Shown in pieces: positions 2,953 through 42,771 of a stretch of DNA of 43,430 nucleotides; position 1 is the first letter of the stretch; every line of letters begins with the position of its first letter. The stretch spans positions 1 through 43,430 of the forward strand of contig JBDRNT010000062.1 in the NCBI GenBank assembly GCA_043810925.1, written 5' to 3'. The DNA is from Candidatus Eiseniibacteriota bacterium (GTDB lineage Bacteria; Arandabacterota; Arandabacteria; Arandabacterales; Arandabacteraceae). Under the pieces are notes generated by a model, which ran no database searches, was not told the origin of the DNA, and saw only the letters and a program-made list of their open reading frames with translations. The position numbers were made by a program, and so were the translations under genes.

Positions 2953-2968
2953 AACTTAGCTCAGATTG

Positions 2969-26899: not shown

Positions 26900-26992
26900 T
26901 GGCTCCCCGGACAAGTGTCTCAGAGCGTGGTCTTGTGGGATAGTGTGGCAGCTGCAACAAAACGGATTGCCAAGGGGCACGTGAGGCTGTCG
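26900..26992 (+). repeat. Dispersed att-like element, copy 1 (long form)
   Basis: TGGCTCCCCGGACAAGTGTCTCAGAGCGTGGTCTTGTGGGAT...GTGAGGCTGTCG; 71/93 identical to copy 6 without gaps. Confidence 0.92.
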
Positions 26993-27265
26993 GCCGCACC
27001 TTGTTCAAATGGACTCAACACCGATCGCACGAGCCAAACGATTGCCCTCGCGGCATGCTACCCTATCCTCGCATTGGCGAGTTCCTGACCAAGACCTGTT
27101 CGCCGGCCCGCCTAATCGGAAACTGCACAAAAGGTCAAGAGATTGTGCGCATCAGAGACCTTTGGCGGAGTCTCTGAGGTTGAGCCTGGTTCCCCCGGCC
27201 ACACCTCTGGAGGATATGCATGCTCAGCTACCTGTCATTTGCCTGTACAGGGATGATTTTACTCA

Positions 27266-27727
27266 TCACCTCGCCGGAGAATCTTCGAGGATAATCTCTA
27301 GTTCCCGGCTCCTCTTCAGCCAGGCTTCAGGCTCCGCAGAGAATTGCCCTTTGCTTGTAGCGCAACAGAAATATACCCTCTTCCCTGCATAGTCTGTATA
27401 AATGCTCCTGTTGACCGGCTTACCGGACATTATGTCTCTGGTTTGTCGTTGAGGTGTCTGGGGCGCCACCTTCTTTGTTGCAGGTCTCTCGACCTCCTGA
27501 GCAGGCATCTCCTGGGCTTTTGGCGCGACTTTCCCCACCTCTTGAATAGGTTTCTCCTCTGCCTTTACTGTGACTTCCGCCGCCTCTTGAATCGGTTTCT
27601 TCTCTTCCTGTACTGCGACTTCCGCCGACTCTTGGCTGGGCCTCTCCTCCCTGGCACAAGAGACAACCATGAGTGGTGCTGCCATAAGTGATAGCAGCAA
27701 GATGATTGAGAGTAGTCTGCACATCAT
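27266..27727 (-). CDS. Lipoprotein-like protein with low-complexity linker and C-terminal YHS domain
   Basis: AGGAGG RBS, signal ending VVSC, DIMSGKPVN...YAGKRVYFCC. Confidence 0.8.
   Translation of the reverse strand: MMCRLLSIILLLSLMAAPLMVVSCAREERPSQESAEVAVQEEKKPIQEAAEVTVKAEEKPIQEVGKVAPKAQEMPAQEVERPATKKVAPQTPQRQTRDIMSGKPVNRSIYTDYAGKRVYFCCATSKGQFSAEPEAWLKRSRELEIILEDSPAR
27492..27635 (-). repeat. Three 45-nt (15-aa) tandem repeats in the YHS protein linker
   Basis: GACTT anchors at 27527, 27572 and 27617; AEVAVQEEKKPIQEA/AEVTVKAEEKPIQEV/GKVAPKAQEMPAQEV. Confidence 0.85.
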
Positions 27728-27773
27728 ACGCCTCCTGTTAGAGTAGAATCAGGCAATACTCCTCCACCTGTTC

Positions 27774-28208
27774 TCATTTGCTAAGGTTCAACACATAAAG
27801 GCTGGCAATGCCCAGAGGCAAACCAATCGCTTTGGGCAATGACATTCCCTCCTCGAAGAAAGTGACCCCCACTGCTGACATCGTCAACACCCCACCGACC
27901 AGAACAAGGGGCCCAGCCACAGACAAGCTGCCCCCCAACCTGAAAATAGCGAAGTACAGGACTGTCCCTATTCCCATACAGACACCCGCGATAACTGAAA
28001 ACAGAAGCCCAGCCTTACTGAGATTGAGCAGATTCGTTCCACCAAAGCCCGAGATCGCGATATACCCCAAGATCAGGAACGCAGGCGTGAATTCCAACAC
28101 CAACCCGCCAAACTGGTCAGAGATCTTGCCGGAAGCGAGCTTTGTGAACACATTATGAAGTCCATATAGTACAGCCGCGATAAACGTCGCAATTCTCCAG
28201 GATTCCAT
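27774..28208 (-). CDS. Small EamA/DMT-family transporter
   Basis: About five hydrophobic helices, FFEEGMS..KAIG; start moved to MESWR after GAAGGAAG. Confidence 0.8.
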   Translation of the reverse strand: MESWRIATFIAAVLYGLHNVFTKLASGKISDQFGGLVLEFTPAFLILGYIAISGFGGTNLLNLSKAGLLFSVIAGVCMGIGTVLYFAIFRLGGSLSVAGPLVLVGGVLTMSAVGVTFFEEGMSLPKAIGLPLGIASLYVLNLSK

Positions 28209-28355
28209 AAGAACTTCCTTCAACCCGGTGCATCGACAGATTCTCCCATGATCCACACGGAATGGTTTTCAGCGATTGCGTTGGATGATGTCACAGTTCG
28301 AACCCCGCAATGGGGCAGTCTGTGCGAACTGCGAACATTCGTCTGCAGAAACCGA

Positions 28356-28760
28356 TTATGCCGGCAGAGGAGGGCCTCGTATTGAAAAGGAAGCGATATG
28401 CCAGCTAATCTTGGGTAGACTGAGACCGTCAAACACTTCCCCCGGACACTTCACCGGCGCAGACGGTGCTGAGAAGGAGGAGATGAGAGCTATAGGCAGA
28501 GATCTGAAGACCGAAGGTTTCGCATGATAATGAAGATATGTCCAGTCTCCCTCAAAATGGTTGTACTCCTCACCATGATGATCGGTCTCAACCGGCTCAG
28601 TGTTATAATGTCTGACGGGATGGGAGCTAAGTGTCAGCTGGGTACGCTGGCTCTCTTCAGCAAGATGAACATGGATATAGGGGTACATCTGGCCAACAAG
28701 AACATGAATGACCAGTAAGAACGCGATTGAGTTTCTGAGATGTTTATCCATATCAGACAC
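28356..28760 (-). CDS. His-rich small protein with N-terminal hydrophobic segment and C-terminal RGPP (DUF2946/CzcI-like)
   Basis: GGGAGGG RBS 7 nt before GTG 28760 (alternative ATG 28751); HVH, HHGEEYNH, HYH; ends SIRGPPLPA. Confidence 0.65.
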   Translation of the reverse strand: MSDMDKHLRNSIAFLLVIHVLVGQMYPYIHVHLAEESQRTQLTLSSHPVRHYNTEPVETDHHGEEYNHFEGDWTYLHYHAKPSVFRSLPIALISSFSAPSAPVKCPGEVFDGLSLPKISWHIASFSIRGPPLPA

Positions 28761-28965
28761 TACTCGACCCTCCCGTGTTTCATTGAACCATAAATCCGTA
28801 TTTCGGTTCCACAGATATTCCATATGCCCGTGCGGAGAAGGGTTCAGGTGTCCACCACGTCTTCTAAGGGTTTCTCCCTGCCAAACACTGCGTACAGTCT
28901 CCGGCGTGATGTGGAGTGCGAGACCGATACCGGGTGGCACTGTCAGCAAGAATTCTCAAGAGAGA

Positions 28966-29007
28966 TGGCTCCCCTGAGAAATGTCTGAGGGTGCGGTTCT
29001 GTGGGAT
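28966..29007 (+). repeat. Dispersed att-like element, copy 2 (degenerate)
   Basis: TGGCTCCCCTGAGAAATGTCTGAGGGTGCGGTTCTGTGGGAT; ungapped match to the 42-nt core. Confidence 0.85.
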
Positions 29008-29104
29008 GTTATAGCGGTTGCGGCAAACACGTGGTTATGATCAGAAGACGGGACGCCTCGGCAGCCTATCCACCTCGAGGCCGACTGTCACATCAAGTCT
29101 GAGT

Positions 29105-29479
29105 TCATTCATCGTCCGAAGAGACAACTTCGAAAAACATCACAGGGCCGGCTTCGGTCATTATTGGGTCCTCAATCGCGGAGATGATCTGTTCCGGGCT
29201 GGTCTTATCAGGTTGATACCATATGTCAACCTGCCTTCTTCCTGCATACACCGTGATACTGACAAGCCCGGCCAGTGACCCGATGTGTTCACGAAGGGAT
29301 TCAGCGGTTCCATAGCAGTGGATGCCCTGCACGGTGAAAGTGGTGTGGGCCACTTTTCCTTCGACGCTCTCAGCATATCTGAAGGTCAGCGTCGGTATTC
29401 TCACCGCACGCGCACCAAGTATCCCCGCAAAGGTGAGTACGATAATCACTGCCGGGATTATCCAGACCTTTCTTGTCAA
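29105..29479 (-). CDS. Membrane-anchored HMA-like domain protein
   Basis: N-terminal TM, FTVQGIHCYGT, YQPDKTSPEQIISAIE; AGGAGAGG RBS. Confidence 0.75.
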   Translation of the reverse strand: MTRKVWIIPAVIIVLTFAGILGARAVRIPTLTFRYAESVEGKVAHTTFTVQGIHCYGTAESLREHIGSLAGLVSITVYAGRRQVDIWYQPDKTSPEQIISAIEDPIMTEAGPVMFFEVVSSDDE

Positions 29480-29491
29480 TTCCCTCTCCTG

Positions 29492-30274
29492 CTATATCCC
29501 AATGTCCAATGCCCCTTTCCGGGAACATGTAGCGACGCAGTCCAGGCAACTAGTACAGTCGGACCTGGCAACCTTCGCCAGAGTTGATACAGGGATGCGT
29601 TGAAGGCACCCTGCGTCACAGGCACCACAACCATTACAGCGCGCATCATTACGTGTTACCTTCAGTAATCCTATCCTTGACAGTGGGGTCATCACTGCGC
29701 CAAGCGGACAAAGGTATCGACACCAAGCCATCTCAAATAGGAATGTCGCTGCCAGGACACCGCCTAAAATACTCAGACTCACCACGGGAATCAACCCGTG
29801 CCCCCTACCACCGGTGAATAATATATAGAAAGGATCATACCCCCTGAAGATCAGTTCAGAGGTCCAGAAAGTGAAAACCAGGATCAAGCCAAGGACTACG
29901 TATCTCAGATTCACCAGTATTCTATCTATGATGTCGGGCACTCTCAGAGTGTCTCGTCCCATGACCCTTTTTCGCACCCAAACCAGAGACTCGAAGATTG
30001 TTCCCAGCGGGCAGACCCAGCTACAGAAGCCTTTCTTCATGACGATGACTCCCACCAAGACCGCCAGAGCGATGCTCACGTTCATCTCATTGAGAGCACA
30101 GATGAACTGCTGTCTACTCAGAAGGCCATAGATGGAAACCACACCGCCCATAGGGCAATAGTACTCAACCGTCTTAGCACTGGTACCTGCAAGCCCGCGT
30201 ATCAGAAGGGATATGGCGCCCCCGAGGAAGAAGAGCTGGAATAACCGTCTTGTGACTCTTATCTTAGCCATCAC
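29492..30274 (-). CDS. Membrane 4Fe-4S binding protein (NapH/YccM/MauN-like)
   Basis: YCPMG, FCSWVCPLG, WCRYLCPLG, CNGCGACDAGC, CTSCLDCVATC. Confidence 0.9.
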   Translation of the reverse strand: MMAKIRVTRRLFQLFFLGGAISLLIRGLAGTSAKTVEYYCPMGGVVSIYGLLSRQQFICALNEMNVSIALAVLVGVIVMKKGFCSWVCPLGTIFESLVWVRKRVMGRDTLRVPDIIDRILVNLRYVVLGLILVFTFWTSELIFRGYDPFYILFTGGRGHGLIPVVSLSILGGVLAATFLFEMAWCRYLCPLGAVMTPLSRIGLLKVTRNDARCNGCGACDAGCLQRIPVSTLAKVARSDCTSCLDCVATCSRKGALDIGI

Positions 30275-30609
30275 TCATAAGATATGCGACACCAGACGGC
30301 CAGTCCATCGAAAAGTGTTTGCCGTCCACAGAACCCGGACGCGGAAGGTGTATCATCTACGTCGTACCTGGCGGCCACGGGAGACCAGCCTCACCTCAGC
30401 GCTTTGGCCACCGGACAGGCTGTTCCCCCAAAGCCGAGTCTATATCCTTCTTGTACACTCCGTGCTCCACCTGTGCTTCGATCGTCAACCAGCCCCTGCG
30501 GTGGAACTGATACGGCCTTTCCATCACGATGCGATACTCGGGCACGCTTATGTCAAAATAGCCCTATGCGGACGATTACTCGACATAGGGTCACTATCCG
30601 AGGCTGGGA

Positions 30610-30677
30610 CACGCTTTCAGACATTTGAATGCCAATGGCTCCCCGGGCAAGTGTCTGAAAGCGTGGTTCTGTGGGAT
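30610..30677 (+). repeat. Dispersed att-like element, copy 3, with complete inverted left arm (attP-like)
   Basis: CACGCTTTCAGACATTTG (30610-30627) and CAAGTGTCTGAAAGCGTG (30648-30665) are 17/18 inverted, symmetric about GG 30637-30638. Confidence 0.92.
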
Positions 30678-30932
30678 ACAAACGCCTTCTGCTGGTCGTC
30701 AGGCCGGAAGTGGCTCGACCCACGTGATACTGCAACCCTATCGCCAGGACGATAGGGTTGCCGCTCTGAGCTCGCGATTGTCGGGATTTGAGGGGCAAAT
30801 GCGGAACCCCGGGATGTTCTCATGGGTCTAAGAGAAGAGACCGATACACTTGTATATAGATGTGTACGATCGAGGCTGGGTTTGGTATTCTCTTGTAGGA
30901 ACGCTCGGCGGGCGAAAGGGACGGCGATAGAC

Positions 30933-31391
30933 ATGAGATCTGGGCTTCACAGGTTTGTCAGAATACCGGATGCCTGCGTATGGCTCTGGGTTCTCGCTCT
31001 TGTGGCCCAGGCATCGGCCGTGGCCCCTGTGTTGTGTATGAAGATGGATGGTCAGGTCGAGGTGGAAGCCACCTGCACTTGCCATCGCGGCCCCGCTTCA
31101 CATGGGTTTCCCTCTTTATCATCTTCGAGTTCAGTCTTAGATACGAACCTCAACGATCGGTGCGGCGGATGTTTCGACCTCCAATCCCCGATTGGTGCGG
31201 GAGTACCCGTAGGTGTCGACCAGGGCTCATTGCCAGGCATCAAGTCACTGAGGTCGGGAGCATTTGCGGCCTCACCGACTACTCCCACAGATGTAGCGGT
31301 GGGTATCCAGCATGGGGTGCCTGCTTCACGCCGATCACCTCCTGACAAGACTTCACTAGTCTCTCTCCGAACGACTGTCCTCCTTTGTTGA
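30933..31391 (+). CDS. Cys-containing small protein preceding the efflux operon (CzcI-like position)
   Basis: Hydrophobic N-terminus, VLC...DGQVEVE, CTCH, CGGC, C-terminal LRTTVLLC. Start chosen at ATG 30933. Confidence 0.6.
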   Translation: MRSGLHRFVRIPDACVWLWVLALVAQASAVAPVLCMKMDGQVEVEATCTCHRGPASHGFPSLSSSSSVLDTNLNDRCGGCFDLQSPIGAGVPVGVDQGSLPGIKSLRSGAFAASPTTPTDVAVGIQHGVPASRRSPPDKTSLVSLRTTVLLC

Positions 31392-31512
31392 TGCTCTCCT
31401 GAGCAGTCATCTGCACGCCTATCTACGCGAGCAACTTCAATTGACATGGCATGGGAGGATGAACATTGGTCAAAGACAAGTCAGCGATGGGGTCACTCCG
31501 GAGGTTTTCTTG

Positions 31513-32901
31513 ATGCGTCTGAAATATCTTATCCTGTTCGTTCTAGCCCCGGCAGTTGCGCTGAGTGGCTGCACCACACCTCATGTGAATGCGAGCCGGT
31601 CCGAGGCACGCCCTCTTGGAAGTGACTTCGAGACATTCCAGGCACCTGAAGAGCCATCTGAGGTATCGGTGCCGGCAGGGCCGGAAGGCCCCACCGATGA
31701 AGAGCCCACCGGTATCATCGACATGCGCCAGGCTCTGGCCCAGGCACTGATAAATAGCCCTGAGCTCGCGGCCTTTTCCTGGGAGGTCAGGGCCAGCGAG
31801 GCCGCCGCAGTCCAGGCCGGGCTCTTTCCAAACCCTGAGATTGGCGTTGAAATGGAGAATTTCGGCGGCTCCGGGGAATTCGAGGGCTTTGATGGAAGCG
31901 AGACCACATTCCGGCTCAGTCAGCTAATCGAACTGGGAGGGAAGCGTTCGGGCCGGGCGCGAGTCGCTGCATTGGATCTGAATCTCGCCGGGTGGGATTA
32001 CGAAAGCAAGCGCCTGGAGGTTGTCAGCGAAGCGACCAAGGCCTTTGTGGATGTTCTTGCTGCGCAGGAGAGGCTGGCACTCACTGAAGAACTGGAAGAC
32101 CTGGCCGATGAGGTTTTCAATGTCGTACGAGAGCGGGTCCGGCATGGAAAAGTCTCTCCCGTGGAGGAGGCGAGAGCCGGAGTTGTCCTGGCTTCCAGTC
32201 GAATAGAGACGGAGAAAGCTGGGCGCGAACTCGAGGCATCGCGGAAGCGGCTGGCAGCAATCTGGGGCAGTTCGTCGCCCGCCTTTGAGAGCGTCAGCGG
32301 AGAGCTTGAAGTCATCGAATCCATCCCTCCTGCCGGAACGGTTGCCCGCCACGTGTCACGGAACCCGGATATTGTCCGCTGGGCCGCCGAGATGGAGCAA
32401 CGCGAAGCCGCCTTAGACTTGGAGAAGGCAAGGAGGATCCCTGACCTCACGTTGAGTGGAGGTGTCAAGCACTTCAGGGAGATGGATATCAACGCCTTCG
32501 TGGTGGATCTGTCTATTCCCCTCCCCCTCTTCGATCGGAATCAGGGAGGAACCCGAGAGGCAAGATACAGACTGGCCAAAGCCAGCGAGGAACGCAGAGC
32601 TTCTGAAGTGCGGGTTCGTACCGCGCTTGCGGAAACACATCTGTCACTCTCCGCTGCCTATGCGCAGGCGGTGGCCCTGAGAGACGATGTGCTCCCGGGA
32701 GCCACGACCGCTTTCGAGGCAGCAAGCGAGGGCTATCGCCTTGGGAAATTCAACTACCTGGACGTTCTGGATGCCCAAAGGACCCTGTTCAAAGCCCGCG
32801 AGCAGTACATCGAGACGCTGGCGGCCTACCACAAAGCATCTGTCGATGTTGAGAGATTGATCGGGGAGCGCCTTGATGCCGTTAAGAACACCCCCGAATA
32901 G
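31513..32901 (+). CDS. czcC: TolC/CzcC-family outer-membrane efflux lipoprotein
   Basis: GGAGG RBS, lipobox LSGC, QAGLFPNP, IELGGKR, PLPLFDRNQG, LDVLDAQRTL. Confidence 0.9.
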   Translation: MRLKYLILFVLAPAVALSGCTTPHVNASRSEARPLGSDFETFQAPEEPSEVSVPAGPEGPTDEEPTGIIDMRQALAQALINSPELAAFSWEVRASEAAAVQAGLFPNPEIGVEMENFGGSGEFEGFDGSETTFRLSQLIELGGKRSGRARVAALDLNLAGWDYESKRLEVVSEATKAFVDVLAAQERLALTEELEDLADEVFNVVRERVRHGKVSPVEEARAGVVLASSRIETEKAGRELEASRKRLAAIWGSSSPAFESVSGELEVIESIPPAGTVARHVSRNPDIVRWAAEMEQREAALDLEKARRIPDLTLSGGVKHFREMDINAFVVDLSIPLPLFDRNQGGTREARYRLAKASEERRASEVRVRTALAETHLSLSAAYAQAVALRDDVLPGATTAFEAASEGYRLGKFNYLDVLDAQRTLFKAREQYIETLAAYHKASVDVERLIGERLDAVKNTPE

Positions 32902-32917
32902 AATCTCAGGAGGCATT

Positions 32918-34525
32918 ATGAGGAGTATGAAGCAAATGATTCCCGTCGCCGTGATATTAGTTGCCATAGCGGTCGTTCTTGTGGTGGTCAAGGGCAAAGA
33001 ATCACCGAGTCCCGGAGACATCCACATGACGAGCTCGCAGCCTGTGACCGGCCCGCGACCCGCAGCGGCCCAAGGGCAAGAGCTCTGTGCCAGACATCAG
33101 CTCCCGGTCGCGGAGTGTTTCTCCTGTGATCCCACCTTGAGAGAGCCGGGCCGGCTGTGGTGCAAGGAACATGATCGTTATGAAGACCGATGTTTCATCT
33201 GCCATCCGGACTTAGTGGATACGGGACGCCTGTGGTGCGAGGAGCACCGCCTCTACGAAGATGAGTGCTTCTTCTGTCATCCGGAACTTCGCGAGGAGGA
33301 AACAGGCTCCGCGGAAGGCGACGCTTGCTGTCCCGGAGACGCCGAAGCAAGGACTTCCCCACCCGGTGAACTCCTATGCGTCGAGCACGACGTCTGGGAA
33401 AGTGAGTGCGGGATCTGTCATCCGGAGTTGATCGCCAATCTTGAGCCCGGCCAGGGCCTGAAGATACGTCTGGCGTCCCCGGAATCGGCCGCGAAAGCCG
33501 GGGTCGAGACATCGGTGGGCGCCAAAGGCAGCTCCCTTGGGGGACTGGTGGTCTTGAGCCGCCTGTCATACGACCAGAACCGGCTTGCCCGCATCACCCC
33601 TCTCGCGGCCGGGGTCGTTCGGAACGTGTATGCGGATGTGGGGGATTCGGTCTCAAGGGGACAGGTGCTTGTCGAGATTGACTCTCCGGATATCGCCCGG
33701 GCAAAGAGTGACTACTTGAACTCACTTGCGGACGAAGCCTTGAAGGAACTCGTCTTCAACCGGGAAAGGGATTTACTCGCAAAGAACATCACCTCCCAAC
33801 AGGAGTACGAGGAAGCTTCAGCAGAGTACCAGATGGCCACGAACGCCACGAAGACCAGGTGGCAGCAGCTCCTGAACTATGGATTGACCGAGAGATACGT
33901 TCAGGAAGTGGCGGAGACGAGCTCAAGCTCCTCTCGCCTTCCCATACTGGCGCCGTTCTCCGGAACGCTTGTTGAGAGAGATGCCGTCATTGGCGAGGCC
34001 GTAGAGGTCGGTGACATGTTGTTCACCCTTGCCGATCTGTCGTCGATGTGGCTGGAGCTCTCGATCCCAGAGGACAGGTTGTCTTCAGTAGAAGTAGGTG
34101 ATCCCGTTGAAGCGACTTTCGATGCTCTCCCCGGAATGAGCGTGAGCGGCCAAGTGATCTGGCTGGCCTCAAGCATTGATGAGCAGAGCCGGATGATCAA
34201 GGCCCGCGCGATCATACAGAACCGGGGTTCGTCGCTAAAGCACGGGATGTTCGGACAAGTACGGATCTTACCGAAACGGAATCTCAGCGGACTCCGTGTT
34301 CCGGGCCAGGCCCTTCATCATATCGATGGAATCCCTGTCGTTTTCGTTAAGCTCGAGGATGATCTTTACGAGATTCGGAGGGTTGCCCTGGGAGGTAACA
34401 CAGGAGGTAGTGTCGAGATTCTGGAGGGGATTCTCCCGCAAGAAGAAGTTGTCGTGGCCCACAGCTTCACGATGAAATCAGAATTTCTCAAGTCCCGCCT
34501 CGGCGCGGGATGTGTACATGAATAA
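32918..34525 (+). CDS. czcB: CzcB-like RND periplasmic adaptor with N-terminal Cys/His repeats
   Basis: AGGAGG RBS, TM anchor, APFSGTLVER, ADLSSMW, LKHGMF; lies between TolC and RND genes. Confidence 0.88.
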   Translation: MRSMKQMIPVAVILVAIAVVLVVVKGKESPSPGDIHMTSSQPVTGPRPAAAQGQELCARHQLPVAECFSCDPTLREPGRLWCKEHDRYEDRCFICHPDLVDTGRLWCEEHRLYEDECFFCHPELREEETGSAEGDACCPGDAEARTSPPGELLCVEHDVWESECGICHPELIANLEPGQGLKIRLASPESAAKAGVETSVGAKGSSLGGLVVLSRLSYDQNRLARITPLAAGVVRNVYADVGDSVSRGQVLVEIDSPDIARAKSDYLNSLADEALKELVFNRERDLLAKNITSQQEYEEASAEYQMATNATKTRWQQLLNYGLTERYVQEVAETSSSSSRLPILAPFSGTLVERDAVIGEAVEVGDMLFTLADLSSMWLELSIPEDRLSSVEVGDPVEATFDALPGMSVSGQVIWLASSIDEQSRMIKARAIIQNRGSSLKHGMFGQVRILPKRNLSGLRVPGQALHHIDGIPVVFVKLEDDLYEIRRVALGGNTGGSVEILEGILPQEEVVVAHSFTMKSEFLKSRLGAGCVHE

Positions 34526-34543
34526 CCGCCGGAGGGCACCCTT

Positions 34544-37500
34544 ATGCTAGGCAGGATCATCGAGACGTCGCTGAAGAACCGGCTGGTTGTGGTTCTTGTC
34601 ATCGCCGTGAGCGTTGGGCTGGGCATCCGGGCCATGACGCGCACTCCCGTGGATGCCTTTCCTGACACCACACCGGTACAGGTGCAGATCAATACCACCG
34701 CGCCGGCCCTGAGCCCGGCGGAAATCGAACAGCAGATCACGCTCCCGGTAGAACTCTCGATCGCCGGTCTGCCGGGTCTCACCAATGTTCGCTCAATCTC
34801 GAAGTTCGGCTTCTCACAAGTCGTCGCTACGTTTGACGACCAGACCCACGTATACGATGCCCGCCAGTTCATTCTCGAGCGGCTCGGGAGCGTCAACCTC
34901 CCGGAAGGCATAGGGCGCCCCCAGCTCGGACCCATGTCAACAGGCCTGGGAGAGGTCTTTCACTATATTGTCCGCTCTACCAATCCTGACCGTTCCCTTG
35001 ACGAGCTCCGGACTCTTCATGACTGGGTCGTTAAGCCGGAGCTGCGCAAGGTGGCGGGGGTGGCAGAAGTCAATTCGTGGGGTGGTTTCGAGCGGCAGTA
35101 CCACGTAATCACGGCACCCCGGGCTCTCATCAGCTACCATCTCACCCTGGACAGTGTTTTTGAGGCCCTTGAGAAGAACAATCAGAATGTCGGAGGCGGA
35201 CAGGTCGTAACCTCCGGTCAGACCCTGCTGGTTCACGGCGTGGGTCGCGTCACCACCATCGAAGAGATCGAGAACATAGTCATCAAGGCGCACGAAGGCG
35301 CCCCTGTCCGCATAAGGGATGTAGCAGAAGTCGCACTGGGACACGAGATCCGCCGCGGCGCAGTTACGGCTCACGGACAAGGAGAGGCCGTGTTGGGGCT
35401 CGGTTTCATGTTGATGGGAGAGAACAGCAAGGAGGTTACCGAGGAACTAAAAGCGCGGCTGGAATCGGTCCGGAAATCCCTGCCCGACGATGTCGTCCTG
35501 GAAACTGTTTACGATCGTACGGAGCTGGTGCAATCGGTTATCGGCACGGTTAAGCACAATCTGATCGCCGGAGCCGCACTGGTAGTTGTCGTGCTGTTTC
35601 TGTTCCTGGGGAATCTCCGGGCAGGTCTGATAGTCGCCCTGGCAATCCCCCTCGCCTTGATCTATGCATTCCTGGGCATGTACGCGCTTGCCATCGCCGC
35701 GAGTCTCTTGAGTCTTGGCGCGATGGACTTCGGTATCATCGTCGATGGCTCCGTGGTAATGACAGACAACAACATGCGGAGATTAGTCGACGAGCAGAAG
35801 CGCCTGGGAAGGGCTCTCAATAAGGCCGAGCGGCTCAGGATCATCCTCGCTTCGAGCAAGGAAGTCGTGCGCCCCATCGTATTCGGCATGGCCATCATCC
35901 TGATCGTGTTCTTTCCAATCCTCACCCTGGAAGGCATCGAGGGGAAGATGTTCAAACCTATGGCCTGGACCTTCATCTTCGCCATGGTCGGAGCAGCAGC
36001 GGTAGCCGTGACTCTATCTCCCATCCTGTCCTACTACTTCCTCCCTCGAAGACTCAAGGAGAAGGAAGGCTTTGTCGAGAGGTTGCTGAAGAGAGGTTAC
36101 TCCTTCCTCATCTCCAGGGTGCTTGGCAGGAAACGAATGCTTTTCAGTTCGGTCCTGATCCTACTTGCGCTGACGGCTCTCGTAGGCTCCAGACTCGGGG
36201 GCGAATTCATTCCCAAGCTCCGCGAGGGAGCGATCGTCATCAATACCATACGTCTTTCAGGAGTCTCAATCGATGAGTCGGTCGACTACAACAGTCGAAT
36301 TGAGGCCCTCCTGCTGGAGAGCTTTCCAGATGAGATCAAGTACATCTGGAGCCGGATCGGGACAGCCGAAGTGGCAACAGATCCCATGGGCATAGAGCTG
36401 ACCGACTTCTTTATCACGCTTCATCCCAGGGACAGGTGGACGCGTGCGGGAACCCAGGCCGAACTGGTCAAACGGATGGAGGAACTGGTCGATGACTTGC
36501 CCGGGCTTAACATGATATTCACACAGCCCATAGAAATGCGCCTGAATGAGATGGTCTCCGGCATTCGCTCGGATGTCGGCGTCAAGATTTTCGGGGATGA
36601 CTTCGACACCCTGGTTGGTCTGAGCGATCAGATTCAGGGAATACTCCTGGCCATCGAGGGTGCCTCAGACGTGGCCGGGGAGCAGATTACAGGACAACCA
36701 ACATTACAGATTATGGTGAACCAGGATCAGCTCGCCCGGCATGGCATCCCGGCACGCAATGTGCTCGACCTGATCGAGAGCGTGGGCGGGCGTCGCGTAG
36801 GTGACATTTTCGAGGGTCAGAGGCGCTTTCCCCTCGTGGTGAGGCTCCCTGACGAGCAGCGCACAGATGTAGGAATCCTGGCCAATACGTTGATTCCCAC
36901 CGAAGTTGGTCCGCTCTTGCCACTACGCCGGCTAGCTGAGGTGAGGGAAACCGAAGGACCATCGACCATCAGCCGCGAGTGGGGCCGTCGCCTGATCAAA
37001 GTGCAGTGCAATGTCAGAGACCGGGATGTTGCATCGTTTGTGAAAGAAGCACGGTCCCGCATTGATAATGAAGTGACATTGCCCGAAGGGTACGTGCTCG
37101 AATGGGGAGGTCAGTTCGAACATCTGGAACGCTCTAAAATGAGATTCTCGATCGTTGTGCCCATCACGTTGGCACTCATCTTCCTCGTGCTGTACTTCAG
37201 CCTCAAAAGCCTGAGTGATGTGCTCATCATTTATACTGGCATTCCCTTCGCAGCCATAGGAGGCGTGTTGGCTCTCTGGGGTCGGGGGATGCCCTTTAGC
37301 GTGAGCGCGGCAATTGGATTCATCGCTCTCAGCGGCGTTGCTGTTCTGGATGGACAGGTGCTGGTTTCTACCATCCGGACTTTGCGGAGTCAGGGCCTTC
37401 CATTGGTTGAGGCCGTGATAGGAGCGGCAAAGCAGCGGCTCCGGCCCGTCCTGGCAACATCAGTCACTGACGCGGCCGGGTTTATCCCCATGGCCATTTC

Positions 37501-37663
37501 GACCGGGGTTGGAGCGGAGGTGCAGCGCCCCCTCGCCACAGTGGTCATCGGGGGTATCACTACCTGCACTCTTCTGACGCTGTTCGTGCTTCCGGCACTG
37601 TATCTTGCTCTAGGTAGGTGGATGGAGAAGAGAGCCCGCTTGTATTCTGACCCGACCGCCTAG
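34544..37663 (+). CDS. czcA: CusA/CzcA-family heavy-metal efflux RND permease
   Basis: DAFPD, STGLGE, SLGAMDFGIIVDG, EGKMFKPMA, FTQPIEMR, RLRPVL, GAEVQRPLATVVIGG. Confidence 0.95.
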   Translation: MLGRIIETSLKNRLVVVLVIAVSVGLGIRAMTRTPVDAFPDTTPVQVQINTTAPALSPAEIEQQITLPVELSIAGLPGLTNVRSISKFGFSQVVATFDDQTHVYDARQFILERLGSVNLPEGIGRPQLGPMSTGLGEVFHYIVRSTNPDRSLDELRTLHDWVVKPELRKVAGVAEVNSWGGFERQYHVITAPRALISYHLTLDSVFEALEKNNQNVGGGQVVTSGQTLLVHGVGRVTTIEEIENIVIKAHEGAPVRIRDVAEVALGHEIRRGAVTAHGQGEAVLGLGFMLMGENSKEVTEELKARLESVRKSLPDDVVLETVYDRTELVQSVIGTVKHNLIAGAALVVVVLFLFLGNLRAGLIVALAIPLALIYAFLGMYALAIAASLLSLGAMDFGIIVDGSVVMTDNNMRRLVDEQKRLGRALNKAERLRIILASSKEVVRPIVFGMAIILIVFFPILTLEGIEGKMFKPMAWTFIFAMVGAAAVAVTLSPILSYYFLPRRLKEKEGFVERLLKRGYSFLISRVLGRKRMLFSSVLILLALTALVGSRLGGEFIPKLREGAIVINTIRLSGVSIDESVDYNSRIEALLLESFPDEIKYIWSRIGTAEVATDPMGIELTDFFITLHPRDRWTRAGTQAELVKRMEELVDDLPGLNMIFTQPIEMRLNEMVSGIRSDVGVKIFGDDFDTLVGLSDQIQGILLAIEGASDVAGEQITGQPTLQIMVNQDQLARHGIPARNVLDLIESVGGRRVGDIFEGQRRFPLVVRLPDEQRTDVGILANTLIPTEVGPLLPLRRLAEVRETEGPSTISREWGRRLIKVQCNVRDRDVASFVKEARSRIDNEVTLPEGYVLEWGGQFEHLERSKMRFSIVVPITLALIFLVLYFSLKSLSDVLIIYTGIPFAAIGGVLALWGRGMPFSVSAAIGFIALSGVAVLDGQVLVSTIRTLRSQGLPLVEAVIGAAKQRLRPVLATSVTDAAGFIPMAISTGVGAEVQRPLATVVIGGITTCTLLTLFVLPALYLALGRWMEKRARLYSDPTA

Positions 37664-37709
37664 AATAGGGCCACTCCTGGAGGCAGACCTACGCCTCTGG
37701 GCACTTGAG

Positions 37710-37751
37710 CGGCTCCCCGGATGAATGTCTGAGAGCGCGACTCTGTGGGAT
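37710..37751 (+). repeat. Dispersed att-like element, copy 4
   Basis: CGGCTCCCCGGATGAATGTCTGAGAGCGCGACTCTGTGGGAT, between the convergent czcA and BNR genes. Confidence 0.88.
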
Positions 37752-37808
37752 GCACTGGCCCTTGGGACTTGGTGCAGATCGTGGCAAGAGACCGTTGGAC
37801 GCAGACTG

Positions 37809-40385
37809 CTACTTCGTGATCACGATACTTCGGGACTTCTGTTCCCCGCCCGCCTGGAGGGTGACAAAGTAGACTCCGCCAGTCAAATCGCTGGCAGACC
37901 ACCAGGTCGTGCGAATGACTCCATCGCCGCTGGGAAGATCGCCGACATGACTGACAAGCCTCCCGCGCACGTCATAGACATCTAGGCTGACAGGCCCGGG
38001 ATGCCTCGATGCAAAGCGCAATAGGGTGCGGTCCCGAACAGGGTTCGGGTAGGGAGGGTCCAGCATGAGGTGAATCGCGGAACCACCCGCCACTTCCACG
38101 TCCACTCCGCTCAGCGGCGGAATGTCGATCTCCCAGGCACCGCGCCCATGAGTACCGGCAACGAGCTTCCTGGCGCTCCTGCGAATTTCCAGATCCAGAA
38201 CGACGGCATTCGGCAGTCCCACTTCGTGGGGTACCCAGTTCATCCCGCCGTTGGTGCTCGACCACACTCCCACGTCGGTGCCGATATACCACACTATCGG
38301 ATCGAGAGGATCAACAATCATCGTATTGACGGGCTGCGATCGAAGGTCTCCAGTCACATCCACCCAGCTGGCGCCCATGTCCGTGGTCATGGCGATGTGC
38401 GCTCGTCCCGCGGCGTATCCCGAGAAGGTCACAAACGCGGTATTCACATCGGTCGGATGAGCATGGATCTTGGTCTCGGCACCCGCGTAGAATCCGTATG
38501 GACCCGCATTCTGCCAGGTTTCAGCATCGTCCGTAGTAAACGTCACACCCTCTGAGTTCACCGTCCACACCACATCACCATTCACCGGGCTTATGGATAT
38601 CCAGGTGGCAGTTTGCGCGCCAACCAATCCCCAGCTGCTGCCTCCATTCGTGGTCCGGAAAATCCCATCGCTGGTGGATGTGAAGAGACGCGACGGCTGA
38701 TTCTGGTCCTCGTCCACCGGGGCAATCCAGGAACCACTGCCGGTAATCCCGTTCATAATGGTGAACCAGCTGGCCCCCCCGTTGACACTCTTAACATGAT
38801 TCCCGAACTGCCATTCGCCGTAGATCCGGTCCGCATTGTTGGGGTCCACGCTGCACACCATCCCGTCGGCGAGAAGTGTCGATACGGCCCACGTGTCAGG
38901 ATCCACCCGCCCGGGAATCCCGTTGTCCTGGGTCCCCCCCATCATGAAGGCGGGGTCCGATTGGGCGACGCAAATATCGTAGAACTGATAGGTGACCAGG
39001 CCTTCGCGCCGGGAGGACCAGGTCGCGCCGTCATCGGTGGACCTCCAAACGCCGCCGTCGGTGCAGACCCACACATTGCTGGTGGACCCGGGTTCATAGG
39101 CAATGGCATGATGATCCCAGTGCACATCAGTTTCGTTTCCCAGAATGAAGCCCTCGCCCGTCTTTGAGAAATTGACTCCACCGTCGGTTGAGCGATACAG
39201 ACTCACCCCGCCTGCGATCACCGTGTTGATATCATTCGGGTCCGCGGCCAGCGTGAGGTTGTACCAGCCTTGAGAGTTCACCATATTGAGTGTAGTGTTC
39301 TGCGGGACCCAGGTTTCGCCATTGTCGTCGCTACGGTAGACGCCCAGGGACTGTGAGTTCTGCGAGCTTGTGTAGTTCGCGTAGATCACACTCGGGTCGG
39401 CGGCTGAGACAGCGATCTTTGTCTTCCCAACCTCGTCACCCGGAGGCTGACCGGTTCCGGCCTTGTACCACGTAAGGCCGTCGTCTGTAGAAACCTTGAC
39501 ATTGTTATTGCCCAGGCCGAATCCCTTGGCCGCGTATACGCGGCTCGGATCTCCCGGTTTCCACTTCACATCGTACCACCGGCCGGTGGACTGTTCCTCG
39601 GTCCATGTCTCTCCATCGTCCGTCGATCGAAAGAGACCCTCGCGTGTCCCGGCCAGGATCGTTCCGGTGTATGGATTCGCCTCAATCACATTGGTTCCGC
39701 TTCCAGCGCTTACCGGGTAAGATAGGCCGGTGGTGCTCCAGGTCTCACCTCCATCGACCGACTTAAGAATACCCACGCCGAAGAGACCGGGGTAGGCGCC
39801 GGTTCCCTCGCCCGTGCCAATGAGAACGACATCCGGGTCCCAGGGAAGAACGCATATTGCGCCTACTGCAAGTGTCGGCAGCTCATCCGTGGTGGTCCTC
39901 CACGTGTCGCCGCCGTCGTCTGACTTCCATAACCCGCCACTGGCCGCTCCCACATATACGATGTCCGGATTCGTGGGGTGGAAATCGATCGAGATGATGC
40001 GGCCGGACATATTCACCGGCCCGATGGCGAACCAGCTTGCCAGGGGAGCTCTGCCGAGATCCGCTTCACGCTCCATGCGAGCCTGCCAGGCCTCCCAGCG
40101 GGCGCCGAAATCAGGGAGCTTGTCGTCCGTCATCCTCGGTTCCAGAAGCCACTTGACCCGGTTGTAGGGTTTCCAGCCGCTTCCCCTCTGTTCTTTGAGC
40201 TCAGGATATTCTTCGTAGAAGCGGGCCATCTCATTGAGCCAGACGAGTCCCGGATCATCGGCCACGTGATCTTCGGACGCGAATGCGCTCAAGGGTTGCA
40301 TGCCGATCACCCCGATGGAAATGCTCAGGACAGCAAGAAGGCAAACGTTTCGGAGTGTTCTCCGCAAACCGGCGATCATGGTCAT
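37809..40385 (-). CDS. Secreted BNR/Asp-box (VPS10/GH74-like) beta-propeller protein with FlgD/T9SS-like CTD
   Basis: Many SxDGGxTW Asp boxes, SGRI, GGTQDNG, AGTHGRG, tail PYPNP...YDVRGR...GVYFV. Start ATG 40385 after GAGGAG. Confidence 0.88.
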   Translation of the reverse strand: MTMIAGLRRTLRNVCLLAVLSISIGVIGMQPLSAFASEDHVADDPGLVWLNEMARFYEEYPELKEQRGSGWKPYNRVKWLLEPRMTDDKLPDFGARWEAWQARMEREADLGRAPLASWFAIGPVNMSGRIISIDFHPTNPDIVYVGAASGGLWKSDDGGDTWRTTTDELPTLAVGAICVLPWDPDVVLIGTGEGTGAYPGLFGVGILKSVDGGETWSTTGLSYPVSAGSGTNVIEANPYTGTILAGTREGLFRSTDDGETWTEEQSTGRWYDVKWKPGDPSRVYAAKGFGLGNNNVKVSTDDGLTWYKAGTGQPPGDEVGKTKIAVSAADPSVIYANYTSSQNSQSLGVYRSDDNGETWVPQNTTLNMVNSQGWYNLTLAADPNDINTVIAGGVSLYRSTDGGVNFSKTGEGFILGNETDVHWDHHAIAYEPGSTSNVWVCTDGGVWRSTDDGATWSSRREGLVTYQFYDICVAQSDPAFMMGGTQDNGIPGRVDPDTWAVSTLLADGMVCSVDPNNADRIYGEWQFGNHVKSVNGGASWFTIMNGITGSGSWIAPVDEDQNQPSRLFTSTSDGIFRTTNGGSSWGLVGAQTATWISISPVNGDVVWTVNSEGVTFTTDDAETWQNAGPYGFYAGAETKIHAHPTDVNTAFVTFSGYAAGRAHIAMTTDMGASWVDVTGDLRSQPVNTMIVDPLDPIVWYIGTDVGVWSSTNGGMNWVPHEVGLPNAVVLDLEIRRSARKLVAGTHGRGAWEIDIPPLSGVDVEVAGGSAIHLMLDPPYPNPVRDRTLLRFASRHPGPVSLDVYDVRGRLVSHVGDLPSGDGVIRTTWWSASDLTGGVYFVTLQAGGEQKSRSIVITK

Positions 40386-40406
40386 TATGATAGGCTCCTC
40401 GTTCAC

Positions 40407-40435
40407 ATTATACCACCACGCCCGGCTCATGTAAA
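40407..40435 (-). promoter_or_regulatory. Sigma70-type promoter of the BNR gene
   Basis: Minus strand TTTACA-17 nt-TATAAT with extended -10 TG. Confidence 0.75.
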
Positions 40436-40464
40436 CGCTCACCCGATAAGCAGATTGGTGAGGT

Positions 40465-40536
40465 CGGCTCCCCGGGCAAATGTCTGAAAGTGTCCTCTTG
40501 CTAGATGCTGTGGCACTCTTTGCACGAGGGATTGCA
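40465..40536 (+). repeat. Dispersed att-like element, copy 5
   Basis: CGGCTCCCCGGGCAAATGTCTGAAAGTGTCCTCTTGCTAGATGCTGTGGCA...GGGATTGCA aligns ungapped with copies 1 and 6. Confidence 0.88.
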
Positions 40537-40722
40537 TGATCACCTAACCCCTCGCCCCGAGCCGATACCGGACTCCGCGTAAGGGTACCGCTAGCGGCGA
40601 GAGCCTGCCGGCTCATATCATAGCACCCCACGATGATTCTCCTTGTTTCTGGAGCCTGACCAACTCGGGCGACCTAAGCAATCAAGTGATTCTCAAAGGG
40701 AATATGAAACCTTTCCTCCCCG

Positions 40723-40761
40723 TTATACGTATTGTATAATAGATTACACATATAGTGTAAT
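40723..40761. promoter_or_regulatory. Two tandem palindromic operators, probably for the adjacent TetR
   Basis: TTATAC-N5-GTATAA (40723-40739) and ATTACAC-N5-GTGTAAT (40743-40761); the first overlaps TATAAT at 40735. Confidence 0.75.
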
Positions 40762-40780
40762 GCAGATAGGAGGAGTCGAT

Positions 40781-41413
40781 ATGTCACGCAGAGAACTCGA
40801 GCGAGAGGCGCGCAGGCAGGCGATCATCGATGCCGCCCGGCGTCTATTCTTCGACAAAGGATTCGAGGAGACGACTATGGAGGATATCGCGGGGGAAGCC
40901 GATTACACCCGCAGAACCCTTTACGAATACTTCAGAAGCAGGGAAGAGATCTGCCTGCTGGTTGTCCTCGAAGGGTTAGATCTTCGTCAAGGTATTCAAC
41001 AGGAGGCCATGAGGGCCGCGAGCATTGGCCTTGAGAAGGTGAGACGCTGGGGCGAAGCCTTCTGGGAATTCGCGAAACGCTACCCCGCCTACCTGCACAT
41101 CCAGGCATACTGGGACTACAGGGGGATCGACCGGAATCGCATCGATACGGAGGTCTTCCAGCGTTTCGAGACGGCCAACGAACGTATCATCGAATCGCTA
41201 CGCGAAGCCTTCCGGCAAGGCATCGATGACGGGAGTATCCGCGGGGAGGAGTCCACCGACATGCTGATAAGCCACTACGCCTATACATTACGCACCGTGA
41301 TGAACAAGGCCCTGTTCCCAGCATACTCGTTTGCAAGTTTCGATTCCGAGGCATATGTGGCCGGATTTCTCGGTCTATTCATTCGGGCCATCGGCATAGG
41401 GAGGTCATCATGA
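40781..41413 (+). CDS. TetR/AcrR-family regulator
   Basis: AGGAGG RBS; AARRLFFDKGFEETTMEDIAGEADYTRRTLYEYF HTH. Confidence 0.93.
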   Translation: MSRRELEREARRQAIIDAARRLFFDKGFEETTMEDIAGEADYTRRTLYEYFRSREEICLLVVLEGLDLRQGIQQEAMRAASIGLEKVRRWGEAFWEFAKRYPAYLHIQAYWDYRGIDRNRIDTEVFQRFETANERIIESLREAFRQGIDDGSIRGEESTDMLISHYAYTLRTVMNKALFPAYSFASFDSEAYVAGFLGLFIRAIGIGRSS

Positions 41414-42345
41414 AAGTAGCCAGTACAGATCTTTTCAACGCGGCTCAAGTGGCCACGCGGTGGGGGCGGTGGCTGGATTTCCCGCTCCTGCGTATCCCGG
41501 TAGCCTTTCTATTTCTCGCGCCGGTAGTCGCCGGGCACAACCTGCTGATGATATTCGTAGTGGAGAAGTTGGCCCAGCCCTGGTTCGCCATATGCAGGGA
41601 TTGCCTATTTGTTGTGGAACCCATGGTGTTCATACTTCTCTATAGATGGTATGTGAGAAGGATCGAGAAACGGCGGCCTCTTGAAGTCTCCTTTGATGGG
41701 GCTGCAGGCGAGTTCGGCGCTGGCGCGTTGATGTCGCTCGGCATTGTGGGTATTGCCGTGCTTGCGTTGGTTGCGGCCGGGTCCTATCGGATAGAATCGC
41801 TCAACAATCCATGGACCATCGTTCACGCCTTCGCCGTCTTCACTTCGGGAGCATTGATACAGGTTTTGATCTTCCGGTTGATCCTGTTCCGGCTCTGCGA
41901 GGAGCTTCTTGGCACGTGGATCTCGGTGGCGGTCATCGCGCTGATTTTCGCCTCCGCACATATGGCAAATCCCAATGCATCGGCGATCTCGTTCGCTGCG
42001 CTAGCAGGCTCGGATATCCTACTCTTCGCCGGTTTCGTCCTGACCCGCAGGCTGTGGCTCGTGTGGGGAATCCACGCGGGGTGGAATTTCTTCCAAGACG
42101 GCTTGTTCGGCATGCCCAACTCGGGAGTGACGGAGTTGCCCAGCTGGATAGTGCCTGAGATTGGCGGACCTGCGTGGCTCTCCGGGGGTACGTTCGGGAT
42201 AGAGGCATCGGTGGGAGGCATCGCACTCCCGCTTATGACCGGTATCATGCTGTTCGTCATCGCAGCAAAAAGAAATCAGATCGTGCTGCCGCGCTGGATT
42301 CGCAATAGGCTCGCCCAGGCTCAAGGCATGTACTCACATAGATGA
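41410..42345 (+). CDS. CPBP (Abi/CAAX) intramembrane protease-family protein with degenerate first motif
   Basis: FASAH, HAGWN, GGTFGIEAS; ATGA overlap with tetR. Confidence 0.85.
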   Translation: MKVASTDLFNAAQVATRWGRWLDFPLLRIPVAFLFLAPVVAGHNLLMIFVVEKLAQPWFAICRDCLFVVEPMVFILLYRWYVRRIEKRRPLEVSFDGAAGEFGAGALMSLGIVGIAVLALVAAGSYRIESLNNPWTIVHAFAVFTSGALIQVLIFRLILFRLCEELLGTWISVAVIALIFASAHMANPNASAISFAALAGSDILLFAGFVLTRRLWLVWGIHAGWNFFQDGLFGMPNSGVTELPSWIVPEIGGPAWLSGGTFGIEASVGGIALPLMTGIMLFVIAAKRNQIVLPRWIRNRLAQAQGMYSHR

Positions 42346-42412
42346 ACATGGGATACAGACCTCGAGCAGGCAGACAAGAAGGTGAACGGTGCAATACCCC
42401 CAGGAAGTGGTG

Positions 42413-42505
42413 TGGCTCCCCGGACAAATGTCTGAAAGCGTGGTTTTGTGGGATAGGGTAGCGCTTGTGGCTAAACGGGTTGCGAGAGGACAGGTAAGGC
42501 TATCT
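42413..42505 (+). repeat. Dispersed att-like element, copy 6 (long form)
   Basis: TGGCTCCCCGGACAAATGTCTGAAAGCGTGGTTTTGTGGGAT...GTAAGGCTATCT. Confidence 0.92.
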
Positions 42506-42741
42506 CCCCCCCCCAAAAAACGATCTTCGCAAACTCTTGATGAGCGAAAAGTGTGTCAAGATCCCGAGTTCTTGGAGAGTCGTAAGAGGCCGACAGGCAT
42601 GACTGCCGGGGCCCACCGCGTCCCCTACTCTGCCAACCTTTTATGAGCACTAATGTAGTACCAAGTAAATGTATATAGCGGTTTTGATATAGTATTTATT
42701 CAATAGTCGGGCTTTTTCTTGTTTTGTCTGAGTCAATTCTC

Positions 42742-42771
42742 TTGACATAGCCACTGTGATCGTAGTAGCAT
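42742..42771 (+). promoter_or_regulatory. Possible sigma70-type promoter
   Basis: TTGACA-18 nt-TAGCAT, preceded by an AT-rich tract. Confidence 0.5.

Follow-up and report, generated by a model that had tools for sequence, protein, structure and literature searches.

To our knowledge, integrons are the only well-described store of interchangeable cassettes in ordered arrays. Their attC sites conserve structure over sequence, and their cassettes are mostly single promoterless open reading frames (ORFs) read from the promoter Pc. Modules bounded by short sites also occur in Acinetobacter, where one account describes pdif modules as discrete sets of accessory genes between short conserved recombination sites, mobilized by a recombinase that the host encodes elsewhere (PMC12907356). 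Here we describe a 41-nt site, the core, that divides one end of a 43,430-nt stretch of DNA from Candidatus Eiseniibacteriota (the window) into gene cassettes. The window is the whole of contig C62 (JBDRNT010000062.1) of a metagenome-assembled genome (MAG) of 3.85 Mb in 185 contigs (G000; GCA_043810925.1). The core belongs to a site family that is clustered in arrays and co-oriented within them; the cassettes assort independently, homology between arrays breaks inside the core, and cassettes have passed between genera. We infer that the chemistry is site-specific (protein-mediated), that it passes through a circular intermediate and that the enzyme acts in trans, and we put the chances that this is a site-specific cassette system independent of the integron integrase IntI, with its recombinase acting in trans, at about even.

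The window contains six copies of the core, all on the plus strand and starting at 26901, 28967, 30637, 37711, 40466 and 42414 (anchor GGCTCCCC). A first-pass annotation of the window had reported six same-strand copies; all six stand, each starting one base after the position given there. The core is 41 nt long and asymmetric, with the consensus GGCTCCCCGGACAAATGTCTGAAAGCGTGGTTYTGTGGGAT; it begins with the decamer GGCTCCCCGG and ends with TGTGGGAT. A 27-nt degenerate pattern with at most three mismatches matched five of the six window copies, compared with 0.00 expected from 100 shuffles, and the sixth (28967) was recovered by a repeat search and nhmmer (E 1.6e-16). Most window copies have a looser extension of ~60 nt 3' of the core, and copies 1 and 6 are 75% alike across 102 nt (repeat family D6). 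Upstream of copies 3 and 4 lies a conserved left module of ~75 nt, which includes an inverted part-copy of the core. The first-pass length of 42-93 bp was roughly right for the core and its extension but overlooked this left module. The copies had also been placed between called genes, which agrees with the long ORFs of the window: all lie between them, and copy 5 overlaps only the upstream extension of ORF 37809-40631.

Core site 1 (26901-26941), the first of the array in this contig, has an extension to ~27000 (nhmmer E 1.7e-18), and core site 2 occupies 28967-29007. Core site 3 (30637-30677) is without an extension; its counterpart in G011, a MAG of genus g7, has one of 57 nt. The left module before it, an inverted part-copy of core and extension (30560-30636, plus strand; E 5e-16), forms the 3' end of cassette B and contains an nhmmer minus-strand match at 30627-30606. 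Core site 4 (37711-37751) was found by both nhmmer and the degenerate pattern; its left module (37650-37710, plus strand; E 1.4e-10) forms the 3' end of cassette C and is absent after czcA in G011 and in G001, a MAG of the same genus as G000. The right third of core site 5 (40466-40506; E 1.5e-16) is degenerate. Core site 6 (42414-42454; E 2.4e-19) has an extension to ~42513, and a C run then an A run (42497-42520) lie directly 3' of that extension.

As the first-pass annotation had suggested, we searched the genome and its relatives with a profile built from the six copies, and found further copies in both. G000 carries 34 copies at E<1e-3 on 19 contigs, all outside long ORFs or at their margins. 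The core is present in 9 of 41 genomes searched around G000 and in 8 of 18 genomes of the phylum (G000 included in both counts): in genera g1, g3 and g7 and in one of three genomes of g9, from a second family. Array contigs fetched from 8 genomes yielded 105 sites with a score of at least 30. An exact 23-nt pattern occurred in only 5 assemblies among ~185,000 species genomes, 2 of them titled Candidatus Eisenbacteria, and a search of viral contigs, plasmids and phages for the core gave no match. Core mismatches average ~8 of 41 positions (ungapped) and are equal within genomes and between genera, whose coding identity is 65-72%.

Within G000, the sites are strongly clustered and coincide with breaks in the assembly. 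A more stringent profile recovered 31 sites, 26 of them no more than 5 kb from a contig end, and the 23 contigs of at least 50 kb (1.71 Mb, 45% of the assembly) carry one site only, 471 nt from an end. This clustering indicates that large contigs carry array borders and small contigs array interiors; C62, C96, C26 and C100 hold borders of one side, and C94, C48 and C103 of the other. On C96, the first site of the array has an FMN riboswitch (116 bits) ~100 nt to its left (L001:12051-12169, G000:C96:42050-42168, minus strand), which places that border of the array in the core genome. DNA from environmental samples agrees with independent assortment of the cassettes: numerous contigs from estuary and sediment metagenomes match the window only at 42413-42456, with flanks unlike on both sides. 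One 1626-nt sediment-metagenome contig is cassette B alone (29034-30626, ~95% identity), and another metagenome contig stops at the czcA stop codon. Six sequencing runs contain at most 0.13 of the sampled words, and window parts without contig cover are not evidence of absence; a single joint from 30626 to 42412 (run X1) has a shorter side of 21 letters and could reflect which of two cores the alignment favored.

Two unusual forms of the site were seen in passing. At L023:1157-1256 (G001:C160:39157-39256), a site has an internal tandem duplication of the core's last 23 nt. A conserved 106-nt mini-cassette, in which a core whose middle block is of an alternative type (…GCTGCCATCCC…) is followed by a variant extension and a second core, recurs at G000:C100:34609-34716 and C26:16203-16309, at G001:C160:34563-34669 and at G013:C196:2015-2121, and often precedes a gene pair encoding a winged helix-turn-helix nucleotidyltransferase and a HEPN protein.

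All 26 contigs with at least two sites (76 sites) have their sites co-oriented. Gene orientation relative to the site is random, with 48 left neighbors opposite and 45 in the same orientation, and 54 and 41 on the right. Start-to-start spacing ranges from 106 to 9656 nt (median ~2.3 kb), and cassettes hold one to four genes in either orientation. We rejected replication strand as the cause of co-orientation: site orientation coincided with positive GC skew in just 7 of 16 contigs and with the majority gene strand of the flanks in 9 of 16, which indicates that polarity is a property of the array rather than of the replichore. The first-pass annotation had held that scattered copies in random orientation, or a conserved order of modules, would contradict its proposal; we found neither.

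We compared the flanks of sites with the site itself masked. Raw counts gave 19 site pairs with homologous left flanks, 14 with homologous right flanks and 2 with both, the latter being self-overlaps of sites 106 nt apart. After removal of these, 17 left-shared and 12 right-shared pairs remained, and none of the 29 shares both flanks. A core-genome block on C161 served as a control: over 9.3 kb it is collinear with the same-genus G001, at 86% identity. Homology across the core stops at +37 to +47 in left-shared pairs and at -10 to +7 in right-shared pairs. A cassette common to G000 and G007 has a core at both ends in both genomes and unrelated DNA beyond in the alignment, and the alignment of a G000/G001 pair likewise shows the homology break within the core. 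The first-pass annotation had suggested testing whether synteny breaks exactly at the site's GG; the site coincides with synteny breaks in 29 of 29 informative pairs, with homology ending inside the core.

Some cassettes also resemble each other much more closely than do the genomes around them. The czc module of the window (30678-37647) shares 93-94% identity with G011 (93% over 5678 nt) and 81% with the same-genus G001, and a cassette on C63 shares 88% identity with G007. The values for G011 and G007 lie far above the inter-genus baseline of 65-72%, arguing for horizontal transfer at the level of the cassette. Judged by these identities, the data indicate that the czc module alone moved between genera recently.

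To locate the exchange within the core, we counted mismatches by block in 14 left-shared and 12 right-shared pairs, excluding three pairs borne on an insertion sequence (IS) and two self-overlap pairs, and compared them with 5000 resamples. At positions 0-9, left-shared pairs average 0.07 mismatches (0 of 5000 resamples as low), compared with 0.58 in right-shared pairs and 0.85 in all pairs. At positions 28-40, right-shared pairs average 2.08 (150 of 5000 as low), compared with 3.64 in left-shared pairs and 3.17 overall. Positions 0-9 thus track the left flank and positions 28-40 the right flank, which places the exchange between them. On the evidence of these mismatches, the upstream cassette keeps the decamer GGCTCCCCGG, and the downstream cassette keeps the extension together with the TGTGGGAT end of the core.

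The decamer is also the specific target of an IS110-family element. This element (DEDD transposase; PF01548, 85-112 bits on C26, C44 and C88) is inserted in four G000 sites, at an identical point immediately left of CTCCCCGG. Its copies (C26:~15040-16205, C44:1-1222, C88:5434-6065 and C47:1-129, also C154:32401-32532) are 86-96% alike, and the one on C26 carries a stop codon and a deletion of 168 nt. Among 18 genomes the element was found only in G000 and in none of the other 17, so that it parasitizes the site and does not drive the system. Elements of the IS1111/IS110 group target both attC sites and repetitive extragenic palindromes (REPs; PMC11187229), so that these insertions do not discriminate between readings of the core.

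We searched for the recombinase by tblastn and blastp, with the six tyrosine and three serine recombinases of G000, the IntI of G007 and the IS110 transposase as queries. No tyrosine recombinase lies on the core-bearing contigs of G000. A third, IntI-like Xer paralogue is 67-96% identical across the order, and all three Xer-like genes of G000 also occur in core-less genomes; the region 5' of the conserved Xer-like gene on C161 has a synteny break relative to G001 and no repeat array. We found no Y1_Tnp in G007 with its 14 sites, whereas the core-less G005 and G008 have it; in G000, none of the three Y1_Tnp genes shares a contig with a core. A small serine-recombinase pseudogene ~6 kb from the C48 site was judged incidental. 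Two further loci were seen during this search. An IS91-family (Y2) transposase gene (G011:C212:3666-4154) is located on a core-bearing contig, ~3.5 kb downstream of the core; its family does not track the core across genomes. On G000 C32 (14-3986), several tyrosine-recombinase genes lie within 4.5 kb, three of them consecutive on the minus strand, with related copies on C24 and C57; this cluster looks like a recombinase-in-trio (RIT) element.

Several results weigh against a dedicated site-specific system. The recombinase was sought and none was identified: just as the first-pass annotation had seen none in the window, the 61 array contigs (816,568 nt) contain no tyrosine or serine recombinase homologue, with only IS110 itself matching, and the Y1 and Y2 HUH transposases, IntI, the IS110 transposase, the RIT-type recombinase and the third Xer-like protein all fail to track the core across 17-18 genomes. 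Core positions 10-27 track neither flank (4.64 mismatches in left-shared and 5.42 in right-shared pairs, compared with 4.14 in all pairs), a pattern exactly as expected from a crossover gradient in homologous recombination; the block pattern fits a mid-site crossover region or variable crossover points equally well. The czc homology with G011 and G001 stops at the czcA stop codon, 5' of the left module of copy 4. We observed neither circular cassettes nor empty sites nor precise insertion/deletion pairs. The left module is present in only 19 of 105 sites, which makes a "full" site the minority form. All genomes are fragmented MAGs, 57-99% complete, so that per-genome counts and absences are soft, and an enzyme on a plasmid or on unbinned DNA would escape detection.

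The main alternative, less likely in our view than a site-specific system, is that the core is a conserved intergenic repeat with a REP-like role and no dedicated enzyme, and that RecA-type homologous recombination between cores exchanges the cassettes. Cassettes could be deleted to a circle and re-inserted within a genome, or taken up as foreign DNA flanked by two cores, and the repeat would persist since cassettes with well-matched cores spread. This route accounts for the linkage gradient through variable crossover points, needs none of the recombinases that our searches failed to find, and keeps direct orientation automatically; the IS110 insertions are neutral, since that family targets REPs too. 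Perfect runs of less than ~27 nt are a poor substrate for homologous recombination, which has minimal pairing lengths, and the cores, differing at ~8 of 41 positions, mostly share only such runs. Cores also show no genome-specific homogenization, with distances within genomes about the same as those between genomes. Homologous recombination should moreover tolerate inverted copies, and none were present in the 26 contigs; it leaves unexplained the invariant decamer, the position-specific conservation across two families and the inverted left module. The first-pass annotation had proposed serial site-specific integration or cassette accretion. Arrays of independently assorting modules, with breaks in the site, bear this out in part, and either site-specific or homologous exchange could have produced them.

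Like integrons, these are long chromosomal arrays of directly oriented sites between interchangeable cassettes; the sites of one array closely resemble each other, different taxa share cassettes, a toxin-antitoxin-type cassette is present, and an IS110/IS1111 element parasitizes the site. At the level of architecture they form co-oriented arrays of mobile cassettes (26 of 26 contigs; 0 of 29 neighbor pairs conserved). Unlike integrons, the arrays have no associated IntI, no R''/R' boxes and no conserved fold, and neither an attI site nor a Pc promoter was recognized in them. The crossover maps to mid-site and not to the 3' edge of the site, and the cassettes are larger (median ~2.3 kb), often multi-gene (one to four genes) and randomly oriented. 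A search for attC boxes RYYYAAC (R'') and GTTRRRY (R') at 50-140 nt spacing on either strand found a pair in 0 of 95 sites, in line with the first-pass annotation, which had seen no attC ends. This also separates the arrays from clusters of attC sites lacking integron integrases (CALINs), which require at least two attC sites. RNAalifold predicted 0 pairs in 55 aligned sites, and pairing and covariation in three hand-picked candidate helices were no better than in shuffles; a stem seen by eye in the extension failed in a common register. Cores with the alternative middle block (…GCTGCCATCCC…) adjoin left modules of canonical sequence, indicating that core and left module do not co-evolve. The site is constrained in sequence rather than in fold, the opposite of attC. 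Since every molecular test of integron membership failed, we describe the system as working like an integron and do not file it as one.

It is very improbable, given these data, that the arrays belong to an ordinary chromosomal integron with attC sites diverged past recognition and with its intI missing from the assembly. The family does include genomes with true integron integrases, namely G002, G006, G007, G008 and G011 (TIGR02249, 403-471 bits; cut-off 265); the best match in G000 scores 111.9 bits. No core adjoins any of the five intI genes that we fetched. IntI occurs without the core in G002, G006 and G008, the core was found without IntI in G000, G001, G003, G009 and G013, and across the 18 genomes the two are uncorrelated. 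G000 itself has a 55-codon remnant on C112 (1917-2048) matching the C-terminal end of IntI (TIGR02249 positions 272-315), followed by a gene for a 302-aa tyrosine recombinase (2360-3268) and the start of an IS91-type transposase gene; the locus looks like a decayed classical integron. Toxin-antitoxin cassettes occur in sedentary integrons, and the HEPN/minimal nucleotidyltransferase (MNT) cassette in the arrays is a point in favor of this explanation. Against it stand the 0 of 95 sites with attC boxes, the lack of a conserved fold, the absence of co-occurrence between IntI and core, and the random orientation of multi-gene cassettes.

We give hardly any credence to the core being a functional RNA or regulatory DNA (promoter, terminator or insulator) that lies at cassette boundaries incidentally. 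It is intergenic and strongly conserved, as such an element would be. No Rfam family matches it, the only Rfam matches being the FMN riboswitch on C96 and a sub-threshold tRNA-Sec-like match in G007, and it shows neither a consensus structure nor covariation. Its orientation does not depend on that of flanking genes, it occurs in variable arrays only and not throughout the genome, and it lies at synteny breaks in all 29 informative pairs. A likeness of the extension to sigma-54 promoters was rejected, with spacing off by one relative to the consensus and random orientation of the downstream gene.

At 19 of 105 sites, the left module, with its inverted partial core, stands upstream of the core to form a large imperfect palindrome. 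These palindromes raise the question of whether each cassette is a non-autonomous transposon, with inverted ends TGTCTGAAAGCGTG… (core) and …CACGCTTTCAGACA (left module), inserted head to tail at a GGCTCCCCGG-containing target by a transposase encoded elsewhere. The ~45 nt of inverted terminal homology between the left module and core plus extension at these 19 sites, the decamer-containing spacer between the repeats, and the mapping of breaks within the core are all compatible with such a transposon. We nevertheless regard it as improbable: 86 of 105 sites have no second end, target-site duplications are not evident in the alignments, and the only transposase on the array contigs is that of the unrelated G000 IS110 element. 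The distribution of HUH families does not match that of the site, and the G011 czc module, the transferred unit, has no left module.

The core shares with REPs, bacterial interspersed mosaic elements and miniature inverted-repeat transposable elements that it is a short conserved intergenic repeat that causes assembly breaks and is targeted by IS110/IS1111 elements (for REPs, PMC11187229). Unlike these, the core is not self-complementary, not dispersed and never inverted, and it lies at cassette boundaries; nor do RAYT-like Y1 genes, the partners of REPs, co-occur with it. The first-pass view that the element is not a REP-type hairpin holds for the core, which has no self-folding signal, but not for the 19 of 105 sites with an inverted partial core upstream; its exclusion of CRISPR is upheld.

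As in tandem islands at tRNA and tmRNA genes, which use tyrosine integrases, direct repeats of one att-like core stand between modules that were acquired independently. A T-arm-like motif (…CAGGTTCRARTCCTG…) abuts the decamer at 4 of 105 sites, each in a different genome: L001:12230-12264 (G000:C96), L074 ~8222 (G007:C11), L072 ~483 (G011:C21) and L022 ~10686 (G001:C160). The G007 copy gives a weak Rfam tRNA-Sec match (19.9 bits; gathering score 47). The motif hints that the decamer descended from a tRNA-type att core. Unlike in such islands, there is no intact tRNA at these sites (ARAGORN found none), most of the repeat lies outside the tRNA-like part, and the modules are without an integrase and far smaller than typical islands. 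We rejected a tRNA or tmRNA of G000 as the source of the decamer: none of its 41 tRNAs ends in the decamer, and the 3' end of the tmRNA differs.

Xer/pdif modules resemble the cassettes in being discrete units bounded by short conserved sites. A housekeeping-type enzyme acting in trans, as for pdif modules, would explain why the arrays are free of recombinase genes. The pdif sites alternate in orientation, and dif is 28 bp long with two arms and a 6-bp spacer. The cores, in contrast, are all direct, are 41 nt long and by inspection have no 11-6-11 dif-like palindrome, and the three Xer-like genes of G000 are also found in core-less genomes. In the portion of the open-access literature that our queries covered, Eisenbacteria with integrons or mobile elements gave no prior account of such arrays, and integron-like cassettes lacking an integrase led to classical integrons only.

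Taking these comparisons together with the sequence data, we favor a site-specific system in which the window ends in what would be one arm of a lineage-specific cassette array. Cassettes would be gained, lost and exchanged as units through recombination within the 41-nt site, catalyzed by a sequence-specific recombinase that is encoded elsewhere, acts in trans and is not an integron integrase; it is possibly a housekeeping-type enzyme or is carried by an unbinned element. A full site would be a large imperfect palindrome of left module, decamer-containing spacer and core. The outcome would be a chromosomal store of interchangeable accessory genes, also mobile between genera and similar to an integron or to accretion at tandem att sites; its cargo here includes metal-handling modules, type IX secretion system (T9SS)-type secreted proteins and the HEPN/MNT pair. 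We rate the chances a little short of even for this more detailed proposal, namely a gene-capture system that is integron-like in its working but has no integron parts, with a 41-nt site, an invariant GGCTCCCCGG crossover region, optional inverted arms, a trans-acting recombinase, and self-expressed multi-gene cassettes, chiefly for T9SS-type secreted proteins and metal resistance, exchanged within and between genera. That the cassettes are self-expressed is a presumption.

We assigned the contents of the modules in the window using Pfam and NCBIfam. Cassette A (26942-28966) has three minus-strand ORFs: 27266-27727, which is YHS-like with a match below the Pfam cut-off (25.0 bits, cut-off 30.3), and 27774-28256 and 28356-28949, both without a family. 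Cassette B (29008-30559) encodes an HMA/CopZ-like protein (29105-29479) and a NapH/MauN-like 4Fe-4S membrane protein (29492-30274), both on the minus strand. Cassette C (30678-37649, plus strand) has an unknown ORF (30822-31391) followed by czcCBA-like efflux genes encoding an OEP protein (31441-32901), a CusB/HlyD-type fusion protein (32873-34525) and a resistance-nodulation-division pump (ACR_tran; 34544-37663). The N-terminal part of the fusion protein gene (33161-33426) has three copies of a 50-nt repeat, encoding Cys/His-rich motifs that end in …C..CHP and are probably metal-binding.

Cassette D (37752-40465, minus strand) encodes a BNR/sortilin-type secreted protein with a C-terminal Por_Secre_tail domain (T9SS); the true start of its ORF (37809-40631) probably lies before 40465. 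It shares 81% identity with G001:C160, where it is part of a larger two-gene cassette between two sites; we looked for a degenerate site between both genes of that cassette and found none. Cassette E (40507-42413, plus strand) encodes a TetR regulator (40643-41413) and a CPBP/Rce1-like intramembrane protease (41410-42345), and cassette F (42455-43430, plus strand) encodes an LVIVD-repeat protein from 42834 and is cut by the contig end. The module contents named in the first-pass annotation (YHS, HMA/4Fe-4S, czcCBA-like, BNR, TetR/CPBP and LVIVD) were recovered in outline, but its "RGPP" and "EamA" proteins were not found. Across arrays, the cargo is mostly large proteins with C-terminal FlgD_ig or Por_Secre_tail domains, together with a HEPN/MNT pair.

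Left of the array, the two genes directly before site 1 (25455-25889 and 25959-26735) have no family match. Genes in 20586-26735, left of the first site, are patchy among relatives: an S41-like peptidase matches only G013 (77%), a TPR/PMT_2 protein only G007 (75%) and a GDSL lipase only G003 (82%). This region may be an older array that lost its sites. Further left, a 5'-open ORF (1-2952) has four tandem 306-nt repeats (1429-2646, 76-94% alike), and a 3632-aa ORF (3144-14042) has internal repeats spaced 840 nt and ~260 nt; the products of these ORFs (1-14042) are probably giant surface proteins.

Because the repeat fragments these MAGs, the most variable gene content of these bacteria is systematically under-assembled. 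If our proposal is correct, the arrays would represent a second, unrelated solution to the cassette array in a poorly known phylum, and such arrays would have evolved more than once. They would provide a new recombination site and, once it is found, a new recombinase, which may serve as a tool. They would also explain how surface and secreted proteins and metal-efflux operons are traded across genera of sediment and estuary bacteria.

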